Assembly: GCF_009931435.1 (NCBI RefSeq)
Contig: NZ_CP043414.1
Length of the DNA: 64,000 nt
DNA from: Escherichia coli
Lineage (GTDB): Bacteria > Pseudomonadota > Gammaproteobacteria > Enterobacterales > Enterobacteriaceae
Reading direction: 5' to 3' (one strand)
Shown: piece after piece, positions 26,837-31,612 of the stretch
Numbering within the stretch: position 1 is the stretch's first letter
How the letters are laid out: every line of letters begins with the position of its first letter
Made by a program: the position numbers and the translations under genes
The notes under the pieces: generated by a model
The model's input: the letters and a program-made list of their open reading frames with translations, nothing else
Databases searched by the model: none
Told to the model about the DNA's origin: nothing

Positions 26837-28086
<1,250 letters not shown>

Positions 28087-28263
28087 TAGAGTAAGTAACT
28101 GGTTAATTTACATTCTGGTCGCGTGCGCAAATACGCTTTTCCTCACACAGTTGTCAAGTGTTACGTTTAGATAATTGCTATCCGGAAAAGCTTCTGCTAT
28201 TTATAGCGGCCTCATTTTTCCCCCGAACATGGGGATCGATAGTGCGTGTTAAGGAGAAGCAAC

Positions 28264-28719
28264 ATGCAAGAAGGGCAAAACCGTAAAACATCGTCCCTGA
28301 GTATTCTCGCCATCGCTGGGGTGGAGCCATATCAGGAGAAGCCGGGCGAAGAGTATATGAACGAAGCCCAGCTGGCGCACTTCCGTCGTATTCTGGAAGC
28401 ATGGCGTAATCAACTCAGGGATGAAGTCGATCGCACCGTTACACATATGCAGGATGAAGCAGCCAACTTCCCGGATCCGGTAGACCGTGCAGCCCAGGAA
28501 GAAGAGTTCAGCCTCGAACTGCGTAACCGCGATCGCGAGCGTAAGCTGATCAAAAAGATCGAGAAAACGCTGAAAAAAGTGGAAGACGAAGATTTCGGCT
28601 ACTGCGAGTCCTGCGGTGTTGAAATTGGTATTCGTCGTCTGGAAGCGCGCCCGACAGCCGATCTGTGCATTGACTGCAAAACGCTGGCTGAAATTCGCGA
28701 AAAACAAATGGCTGGCTAA
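28264..28719 (+). CDS. dksA: RNA polymerase-binding transcription factor DksA
   Basis: ORF 28246..28719; start placed at MQEGQNRK (151 aa); C4 zinc finger [25 protein letters not shown]. Confidence 0.95.
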
Positions 28720-28746
28720 TTACAGCCGTTCCATCACGTTTACCAC

Positions 28747-28776
28747 AGGCGGGAAATGCTCCCGCCTTATTTTTTG
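28747..28776 (+). terminator. rho-independent terminator after dksA
   Basis: stem AGGCGGGA/TCCCGCCT with 5-nt loop followed by TTATTTTTT; overlaps the 5' end of the gluQ ORF. Confidence 0.75.
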
Positions 28777-29682
28777 TTCAACGAGATGACAGACACACAC
28801 TATATTGGCCGCTTTGCCCCCTCTCCTTCCGGCGAGCTTCATTTTGGCTCTCTGATTGCCGCGCTTGGAAGCTTTCTACAGGCTCGCGCCCGGCAAGGTC
28901 GCTGGCTTGTTCGCATTGAAGATATCGATCCGCCTCGTGAAGTTCCCGGTGCCGCAGAGACCATCCTGCGCCAGCTGGAACATTACGGTTTACACTGGGA
29001 CGGCGATGTTCTCTGGCAATCGCAACGTCACAACGCCTATCGCGAAGCACTCGCATGGTTACATGAGCAAGGGTTAAGTTATTACTGCACCTGCACGCGC
29101 GCACGTATTCAAAGCATTGGCGGTATTTACGACGGTCATTGCCGGGAGTTGCATCATGGGCCAGAAAACGCTGCTGTACGTATTCGCCAGCAGCATCCGG
29201 TCACCCAGTTTACTGACCAGCTGCGCGGCATTATTCATGCCGACCAAAAACTGGCGCGGGAAGATTTTATTATTCATCGTCGTGATGGTCTATTTGCCTA
29301 TAACCTGGCGGTGGTCGTTGACGATCACTACCAGGGCGTGACAGAAATTGTTCGTGGCGCGGATTTGATCGAACCCACGGTGCGCCAAATCTCGCTGTAC
29401 CAGCTTTTTGGCTGGCAGGTGCCAGATTACATTCATTTGCCACTGGCACTTAATCCACAAGGCGCTAAACTTTCCAAGCAGAATCATGCGCCTGCGTTGC
29501 CAAAAGGCGATCCTCGGCCGGTGTTAATCGCGGCACTTCAATTTCTGGGCCAGCAGGCAGAAACACACTGGCAGGATTTCAGCGTCGCGCAAATTCTCCA
29601 GTCAGCCGTCAAAAACTGGCGGCTCACCGCAGTGCCTGAGTCGGCAATTGTAAATTCAACATTCTCAAATGCGTCATGCTGA
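28756..29682 (+). CDS. gluQ: glutamyl-Q tRNA(Asp) synthetase
   Basis: 308-aa ORF from the ATG at 28756, which lies inside the dksA terminator; alternative in-frame ATG at 28786 (MTDTHY); class I aaRS HIGH-like motif ([10 protein letters not shown]). Confidence 0.85.
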
Positions 29683-29741
29683 GCTATGATTAGCCGCTAT
29701 TTTTTTGTCCTGAATGATGTTTGACACTACCGAGGTGTACT

Positions 29742-31139
29742 ATTTTTACCCGAGTCGCTAATTTTTGCCGCAAGGTGCTAAGCCGCGAGGAAAGCGAGGC
29801 TGAACAGGCAGTCGCCCGTCCACAGGTGACGGTGATCCCGCGTGAGCAGCATGCTATTTCCCGCAAAGATATCAGTGAAAATGCCCTGAAGGTAATGTAC
29901 AGGCTCAATAAAGCGGGATACGAAGCCTGGCTGGTTGGCGGCGGCGTGCGCGACCTGTTACTTGGCAAAAAGCCGAAAGATTTTGACGTGACTACTAACG
30001 CCACGCCAGAGCAAGTGCGCAAACTGTTCCGTAACTGCCGCCTGGTGGGTCGCCGTTTCCGTCTGGCTCATGTGATGTTTGGCCCGGAGATTATCGAAGT
30101 TGCGACCTTCCGGGGACATCACGAAGGTAACGTCAGCGACCGTACGACCTCCCAACGCGGGCAAAACGGCATGTTGCTGCGCGACAACATTTTCGGTTCC
30201 ATCGAAGAAGACGCCCAGCGCCGCGATTTCACTATTAATAGTCTGTATTACAGCGTGGCAGATTTTACCGTCCGTGATTACGTTGGCGGCATGAAGGATC
30301 TGAAGGACGGCGTTATCCGTCTGATTGGTAACCCGGAAACGCGCTACCGTGAAGATCCGGTACGTATGCTGCGCGCGGTTCGTTTTGCCGCCAAATTGGG
30401 CATGCGCATCAGCCCGGAAACCGCAGAACCGATCCCACGCCTGGCTACCCTGCTGAACGATATTCCTCCTGCACGCCTGTTTGAAGAATCGCTTAAACTG
30501 CTACAAGCGGGCTACGGTTACGAAACCTATAAACTGTTGTGTGAATACCATCTGTTCCAGCCGCTGTTCCCGACCATTACCCGCTACTTTACGGAAAATG
30601 GTGACAGTCCAATGGAGCGGATCATTGAGCAGGTGCTGAAGAATACTGACACGCGTATTCATAACGATATGCGCGTCAACCCGGCGTTCCTGTTTGCCGC
30701 CATGTTCTGGTATCCCCTGCTGGAAACAGCACAGAAAATCGCGCAAGAGAGCGGCCTGACTTATCACGACGCTTTCGCGCTGGCAATGAACGATGTGTTA
30801 GACGAAGCCTGCCGTTCACTGGCGATCCCGAAACGGCTAACCACTTTAACGCGTGATATCTGGCAGTTACAGTTGCGCATGTCCCGCCGTCAGGGTAAAC
30901 GCGCATGGAAATTACTCGAACATCCGAAGTTCCGTGCCGCTTATGACCTGCTGGCACTGCGTGCTGAAGTAGAACGCAACGCCGAGCTACAACGTCTGGC
31001 GAAATGGTGGGGTGAGTTCCAGGTTTCCGCGCCGCCGGACCAAAAAGGGATGCTTAACGAACTGGATGAAGAACCGTCACCGCGTCGTCGTACTCGTCGC
31101 CCGCGCAGACGTGCGCCGCGCCGTGAGGGCACCGCATGA
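29742..31139 (+). CDS. pcnB: poly(A) polymerase I
   Basis: ORF track opens at the TTG at 29721; no ATG near the 5' end; start placed at the ATT codon at 29742 (IFTRVANF), as reported for E. coli pcnB; nucleotidyltransferase GGGVRD motif. Confidence 0.85.
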
Positions 31140-31612
31140 CAGTGGCGTATATTGCTATCGGCAGCAATCTGGCCTCTCCGCTGGAGCAGGTCAATGCTGC
31201 CCTGAAGGCAATAGATGACATTCCTGAAAGCCGCATTCTTGCCGTTTCTTCGTTTTACCGCACCCCACCACTGGGGCCGCAAGATCAACCCGATTACTTA
31301 AACGCAGCCGTGGCGCTGGAAACCTCTCTTACAGCTGAAGAACTCCTCAACCACACACAGCGTATTGAGTTGCAGCAAGGTCGCGTCCGCAAAGCTGAAC
31401 GCTGGGGACCGCGCACGCTCGATCTTGATATCATGTTGTTTGGTAATCAGGTCATAAACACTGAGCGCCTGACCGTTCCGCACTATGATATGAAGAATCG
31501 TGGATTTATGTTGTGGCCGCTGTTTGAGATCGCGCCGGAACTGGTGTTTCCTGATGGTGAAACGCTGCAAGCAAGACTCACTACTTTCCCTCCCTGCCCA
31601 CAGCACTGGTAA
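31136..31612 (+). CDS. folK: 2-amino-4-hydroxy-6-hydroxymethyldihydropteridine pyrophosphokinase
   Basis: 158-aa ORF recognised as HPPK; start overlaps the pcnB stop (ATGA). Confidence 0.93.

Follow-up and report, generated by a model that had tools for sequence, protein, structure and literature searches.

Comparative evidence for the AUU initiation codon of pcnB in an Escherichia genome

Translation of pcnB, the gene of poly(A) polymerase I (PAP I), almost certainly begins at the AUU codon at position 29742 in the stretch of DNA analysed here, and the predicted product has 465 residues. This stretch, hereafter called the window, comprises 64,000 nt of contig NZ_CP043414.1. The location of the start and the lack of usable alternatives are results of the present analysis, and initiation at AUU as such and the limit that it sets on expression come from published work on E. 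coli K-12.

That pcnB starts with AUU has been known since 2002 and is built into the RefSeq annotation. Later papers, including passages of PMC2939334, credit this start, and the limitation of PAP I synthesis by it, to Binns and Masters (2002), and the AUU start is conserved in Proteobacteria according to papers that cite that work (Mol Microbiol 44:1287). In passages of several papers, infC and pcnB are named as the only two E. coli genes confirmed to be initiated at AUU or at a non-canonical codon. A literature search for pcnB in connection with retapamulin-type initiation profiling yielded no discussion of the gene, and its only mention was in a reference list.

Gene identity and candidate start codons

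The genes dksA, gluQ, pcnB and folK all lie on the + strand in the window, and the order dksA-gluQ-pcnB-folK is conserved, as judged from the open reading frames and from the annotations of K-12 and of the closest genome (L001). When read from the ATT, the window PcnB is 100% identical to the protein of Escherichia albertii NBRC 107761. At the nucleotide level, an 801-nt stretch matches one genome recorded as E. coli with 99.5% identity, and its identity to typical E. coli is about 97%. With the NCBIfam PcnB equivalog model NF008634 (cut-off 702) the protein reaches 997.7 bits, in an alignment that begins at residue 1, and with TIGR01942 (cut-off 305.65) it reaches 525.5, and all models of CCA-adding enzymes stayed under their own cut-offs. 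For the 99%-identical protein cluster P0002 and for the relatives, precomputed annotation gives the domains PolyA_pol, PolyA_pol_RNAbd and PolyA_pol_arg_C (PF01743, PF12627 and PF12626). The alignment with the structures of E. coli PAP I (3AQK, 3AQL, 3AQM and 3AQN) covers residues 28-442 and shows one visible difference (A/V).

In the best-matching genome the RefSeq CDS of pcnB begins on the same ATT (position 1743 of L001, corresponding to 29742 of the window). The RefSeq pcnB of K-12 (b0143; 157729..159126) likewise has ATT as its first codon, and between the gluQ stop and codon 30 the sequences of K-12 and the window do not differ. The two genes share the gluQ-pcnB-folK context, the ATT, the GAGGTG in front of it and a CDS length of 1398 nt. 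They differ in the host only, here an E. albertii-like genome, and there are no differences at the start site.

A mechanical search for open reading frames gives pcnB as 29721..31139, that is, 472 codons of which the ATT is the eighth. The original prediction had stated that this frame opens at TTG 29721 and has no ATG near its N terminus, and this proved correct, with codon 52 (29895) as the first in-frame ATG. The canonical codons that precede it in frame 3' of the ATT are GTGs at codons 12, 29 and 31, and two ATGs located just 5' of the frame (29714 and 29717) are both out of frame. A proposal of 1989 placed the start at ATG codon 52, which corresponds to +1(b) of later work according to passages of PMC2939334. 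The coordinates of the start-site features are collected in Table 1. Two out-of-frame mini-ORFs, 29686-29724 (ATG) and 29714-29761 (ATGATG), were not treated as genes; their ATGs are unconserved outside Escherichia or are part of the TATGAT -10 box.

Table 1. Features at and upstream of the pcnB start, in window coordinates
Feature	Position	Strand	Remarks
TAAACT	29466..29471	+	Agrees with the reported -10 element of the sigma-S promoter pS2 (PMC2939334)
Sigma-70 promoter-like TTCTCA-17 nt-TATGAT	29662..29690	+	gluQ 3' end and just after
In-frame TGA	29715..29717	+	Upstream bound of the pcnB frame; read from sequence
TTG opening the mechanical ORF	29721..29723	+	Within the TTGACA hexamer 29721-29726; judged not to be the start codon
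Shine-Dalgarno GAGGTG	29732..29737	+	4 nt 5' of the ATT (6 nt when counted from GAGG)
ATT (AUU), predicted initiation codon of pcnB	29742..29744	+	Sequence, RefSeq start, conservation
pcnB CDS (poly(A) polymerase I)	29742..31139	+	465 codons plus stop with ATT start; 1398 nt
Codons 1-12, conserved N-terminal peptide	29742..29777	+	Basic, amphipathic; synonymous sites frozen in codons 1-10
GTG codon 12, rival start	29775..29777	+	454-aa product; choice of several automatic gene callers
ATG codon 52, rival or minor start	29895..29897	+	First in-frame ATG; +1(b) in later work

Several observations concern the neighbouring genes and relatives. The pcnB stop and the folK start share 4 nt (ATGA, 31136-31139), and this overlap suggests a possible translational coupling of the two genes. 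Of the 78 species that were compared at the folK start, 38 have ATG and 31 have GTG as the aligned codon. The annotated start of gluQ differs between K-12, where the product has 308 aa (equivalent to ATG 28756), and the PGAP annotation of the closest genome, where it has 298 aa (ATG 28786); an ATG is found at 28786 in 70 of 78 species loci. In a relative with 67% identity (L084, CP043324.1, 1201-2698), pcnB has been called as two ORFs of 316 aa and 150 aa, which suggests a frameshift or a stop, owing either to a pseudogene or to a sequencing error.

Evidence on the start site

Shine-Dalgarno strength was expressed as the energy of the duplex with the 3' tail of 16S rRNA. The ATT at 29742 is the sole candidate start that is preceded by a strong pairing (-9.8 kcal/mol), and the corresponding values are -2.3 kcal/mol for TTG 29721, -0.1 kcal/mol for GTG codon 12 (29775) and -3.7 kcal/mol for ATG codon 52 (29895). 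Passages of two papers call the ribosome-binding site of pcnB poor, whereas the GAGGUG computed here pairs with six consecutive bases of the 16S tail and lies at a normal distance from the AUU.

For the comparative analysis, pcnB loci of 80 Enterobacteriaceae species were used, with one representative locus for each species. An ATT is present at the aligned position in all 80 species, and so is GAGGTG at -10 to -5, and the 4-nt spacer between them is variable. Among 5424 E. coli genomes, 5416 have the same 60 nt around the start as the window, and no E. coli genome was found in which ATG replaces ATT in an otherwise identical 60-mer. Invariance of this degree rules out chance as its cause. On the 3' side of the start, the protein sequence of codons 1-12 is 100% conserved among the 80 species, and codons 2-11 contain five variable sites, each of them a third position with synonymous changes. 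On the 5' side, codon -1 varies non-synonymously (T/N/I/A/P), and indels of 1 nt and 3 nt occur just upstream of the Shine-Dalgarno sequence, so the frame is unpreserved there (alignment A1). Because the frame is broken 5' of the Shine-Dalgarno sequence and the codons 3' of it evolve as coding sequence, translation has to include codon 2 and cannot have begun 5' of the Shine-Dalgarno sequence, and the ATT is the start that remains. The original prediction had placed the beginning of the conserved N-terminal peptide at ATT 29742, with AUU initiation as in E. coli PAP I. The conserved codons 1-12, the variable codon -1 and the 1-nt indels agree with the former, and the RefSeq start, the literature and the comparative and Shine-Dalgarno analyses agree on the latter. 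The low expression that the prediction expected from this start is backed by the K-12 literature.

If translation started at the upstream TTG 29721, the protein would have 472 residues and the ATT would be an ordinary internal isoleucine codon. This TTG does open the reading frame, and some database entries have 472 aa, among them the NCBI Salmonella enterica PcnB cluster P0013; in both Salmonella loci, diarizonae and arizonae (L022 and L023, around 1480), an in-frame ATG is located at the -7 position. We nevertheless consider such a start barely credible for the window, since the TTG lacks a Shine-Dalgarno sequence, a canonical codon at its position is found in only 28 of the 80 species, and the residues that it would add are unconserved. 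Moreover, there is no in-frame ATG, GTG or TTG between the upstream stop and the ATT in 43 of the 80 species. In species other than that of the window, the stop that bounds the frame is located 5 to 59 codons 5' of the ATT (three species at -5 and one at -6), and in-frame stops at -5 to -7 occur in five of the 80. Frame-breaking 1-nt indels between -7 and the Shine-Dalgarno sequence were found in five taxa, namely Enterobacter, Raoultella, Klebsiella indica, Franconibacter and Huaxiibacter. These comparative data practically exclude the TTG. In Salmonella, pcnB may be annotated, or even translated, from seven codons upstream. As a separate observation, TGACAC (in the window part of 29721-29727, with a perfect TTGACA) is kept by many genera, including ones that do not have the TTG.

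A second alternative places the main start at GTG codon 12 (29775), giving a 454-residue protein, and regards the conserved stretch upstream of it as non-coding and regulatory. This GTG is present in all 80 species, many ENA/Logan predictions have 454 aa, and the nucleotide conservation of the 33 nt 5' of it is stronger than protein coding alone requires. Several findings weigh against it and make it very improbable as the main start. It has no Shine-Dalgarno sequence, and the restriction of the variable sites in codons 2-11 to synonymous third positions is that of translated codons. In more distant relatives codons 2-11 have changed, and the frame and a similar amphipathic peptide are retained. 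The curated profile also covers residues 1-11. A minor shorter isoform from the conserved GTG may be produced besides the protein that starts at AUU.

Relatives outside Enterobacteriaceae extend this comparison. Four of them, with protein identities of 67, 62, 62 and 55%, have a GAGG-type Shine-Dalgarno sequence followed by ATT, which heads the similar peptides IFSQIANFCRKV, IFTRVSNFYRHV, ILKRITQLYRSL and IITKVINLYHRL. In L083 the codon aligned to codon 12 is GTC, and therefore a protein of 454 residues could not start at this codon. In another relative that keeps the ATT, the codon chosen by the gene caller is a GTG 12 codons 3' of it. In relatives with identities of 48 and 45%, the homologous basic peptide itself starts on GTG and on ATG, and this beginning of canonically started genes at the same peptide also argues against GTG codon 12. 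The canonical starts of these two relatives fit the statement in passages of the literature that more distant phyla start pcnB on one or another of the canonical codons.

The third alternative adds to the AUU-initiated protein rather than replacing it. Under special conditions, a shorter isoform would be made from ATG codon 52 on transcripts of the sigma-S promoter pS1. According to passages of PMC2939334, pS1 is located 3' of the ATT and works in vitro and, in ppGpp0 cells, also in vivo, and two bands seen in western blots with anti-PAP I were read as a possible second isoform, a possibility raised by the authors. The same source describes the short isoform as doubtful in the view of the authors themselves. 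Since ATG codon 52 is found in only 23 of the 80 species and has a weak Shine-Dalgarno sequence, and since its product would lack the conserved residues 32-51, which are part of the crystallised enzyme (28-442), we regard this isoform as unlikely.

Upstream promoters and the conserved first codons of pcnB

The sigma-70 promoter-like sequence TTCTCA-17 nt-TATGAT is the sole consensus match in 29300-30000 and is strongly conserved in alignment A1 where gluQ is adjacent. It is probably the promoter pB of PMC2939334. For the sigma-S promoter pS2, whose reported -10 element is matched by TAAACT in the window, passages of PMC2939334 place the transcription start at -263 to -265 from the ATT.

The promoter-like block TTCTCA...TATGATTAGCCGCTATTTTTTTG (columns 1-150 of A1; 29632-29720 of the window) is highly conserved in most genera. 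It is exchanged for unrelated sequence in Salmonella, Raoultella ornithinolytica, Klebsiella indica, Kluyvera georgiana, Citrobacter amalonaticus S646 and Intestinirhabdus, and the Shine-Dalgarno sequence and the ATT of pcnB are intact in these taxa. A direct repeat was also noticed, CGCTATTTTTTTG (29695-29707) and CGCTAATTTTTG (29755-29766). Both copies are conserved; one closely follows the -10 box of the promoter-like sequence, and the other falls within codons 5-9 of pcnB.

Synonymous variation is nearly absent from the first codons. The 11 codons from the ATT have a synonymous entropy of 0.186 bits, as compared with a mean of 0.947 for the gene, and this is the lowest value among 420 such segments (rank 1). 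The corresponding 5' codons of folK and gluQ from these loci, 11 for each gene, served as controls and gave 1.08 and 1.03 bits, respectively, about five times the value of pcnB. The frozen block, 29742-29771, includes an invariant rare CGA codon for Arg at codon 4. Nothing else in the locus lacks an obvious explanation, and the block gives a modest lead. Together with GAGGUG it might form an undescribed cis element, such as a context required specifically for initiation at AUU, a binding site for a trans-acting regulator of PAP I synthesis or the conserved core of the internal promoter pS1, though we hold this idea only tentatively and think it rather doubtful.

Candidates for such an element were examined and rejected. 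A hairpin between GGUG of the Shine-Dalgarno sequence (29734-37) and UACC of codons 2-4 (29747-50) has -4.7 kcal/mol and a z of -0.26, and 76 of 200 shuffled sequences fold as well; its pairs hardly vary among the compared loci. A second hairpin that would sequester the Shine-Dalgarno sequence, ACACU (29724-28) with GGUGU (29734-38), has no compensatory pairs, and all 500 of 500 shuffles reach the observed values. A search for Rfam families in 28000-31500 gave sR60 as the sole hit, with an E of 0.4, which is attributable to chance.

At the protein level, residues 1-14 (29742-29783) are basic and amphipathic, with a net charge of +3 and a hydrophobic moment of 0.63, in the top 2% of shuffled sequences. 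Distant PcnB relatives open with similar peptides, such as MIRKLIKVFTRK and MLQFLKKVFHKS. A variable linker (codons 14-31) comes after the peptide, which none of the solved PAP I structures (residues 28-442) contains.

Comparison with known AUU starts and meaning for annotation

The infC gene of E. coli, which encodes IF3, resembles pcnB in having a chromosomal ATT start after a strong Shine-Dalgarno sequence (GGAGG in infC). Passages of the literature state that the weak AUU codon limits infC expression and that IF3 discriminates against it. Unlike pcnB, infC is autoregulated by its own product, and AUU or AUC is reported for it in all bacterial species according to such passages, whereas for pcnB no ATT was seen below about 55% protein identity, where GTG or ATG takes its place. 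The Shine-Dalgarno spacing also differs, being 8 nt in infC and 4-6 nt in pcnB, and the two genes have no in-register downstream motif in common; the only shared motif, CGAGT, lies in another register and looks like chance. Another similar case is ebpA of Enterococcus faecalis, in which a rare ATT initiation codon attenuates expression according to passages of PMC4447247, although this is an unrelated gene from an unrelated organism.

In the mechanism proposed for the window, GAGGUG (29732-37) would position the 30S subunit at AUU 29742, where the initiator tRNA would pair imperfectly with this near-cognate codon, and IF3 would discriminate against such complexes. From what is generally known of this discrimination by IF3, we infer that pcnB would also depend on IF3. 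Weak initiation at AUU would cap PAP I synthesis at a low level. Passages of the literature give AUU initiation in reporter constructs as about 1-2% of that at AUG, describe excess PAP I as toxic, and report that PAP I is kept at a few dozen molecules per cell, with the AUU among the mechanisms.

The predicted lengths of the pcnB product disagree among public databases (P0002-P0120). The NCBI PGAP predictions have 465 aa, starting at the ATT, and those of ENA/Logan mostly have 454 aa, starting at GTG codon 12, or 447-450 aa. Some public predictions have 472 aa, starting at the TTG, and a few are fused to folK (584-630 aa). This matters for annotation quality, since gene callers that give 454, 447 or 472 aa drop or extend the strictly conserved N-terminal peptide of PcnB.
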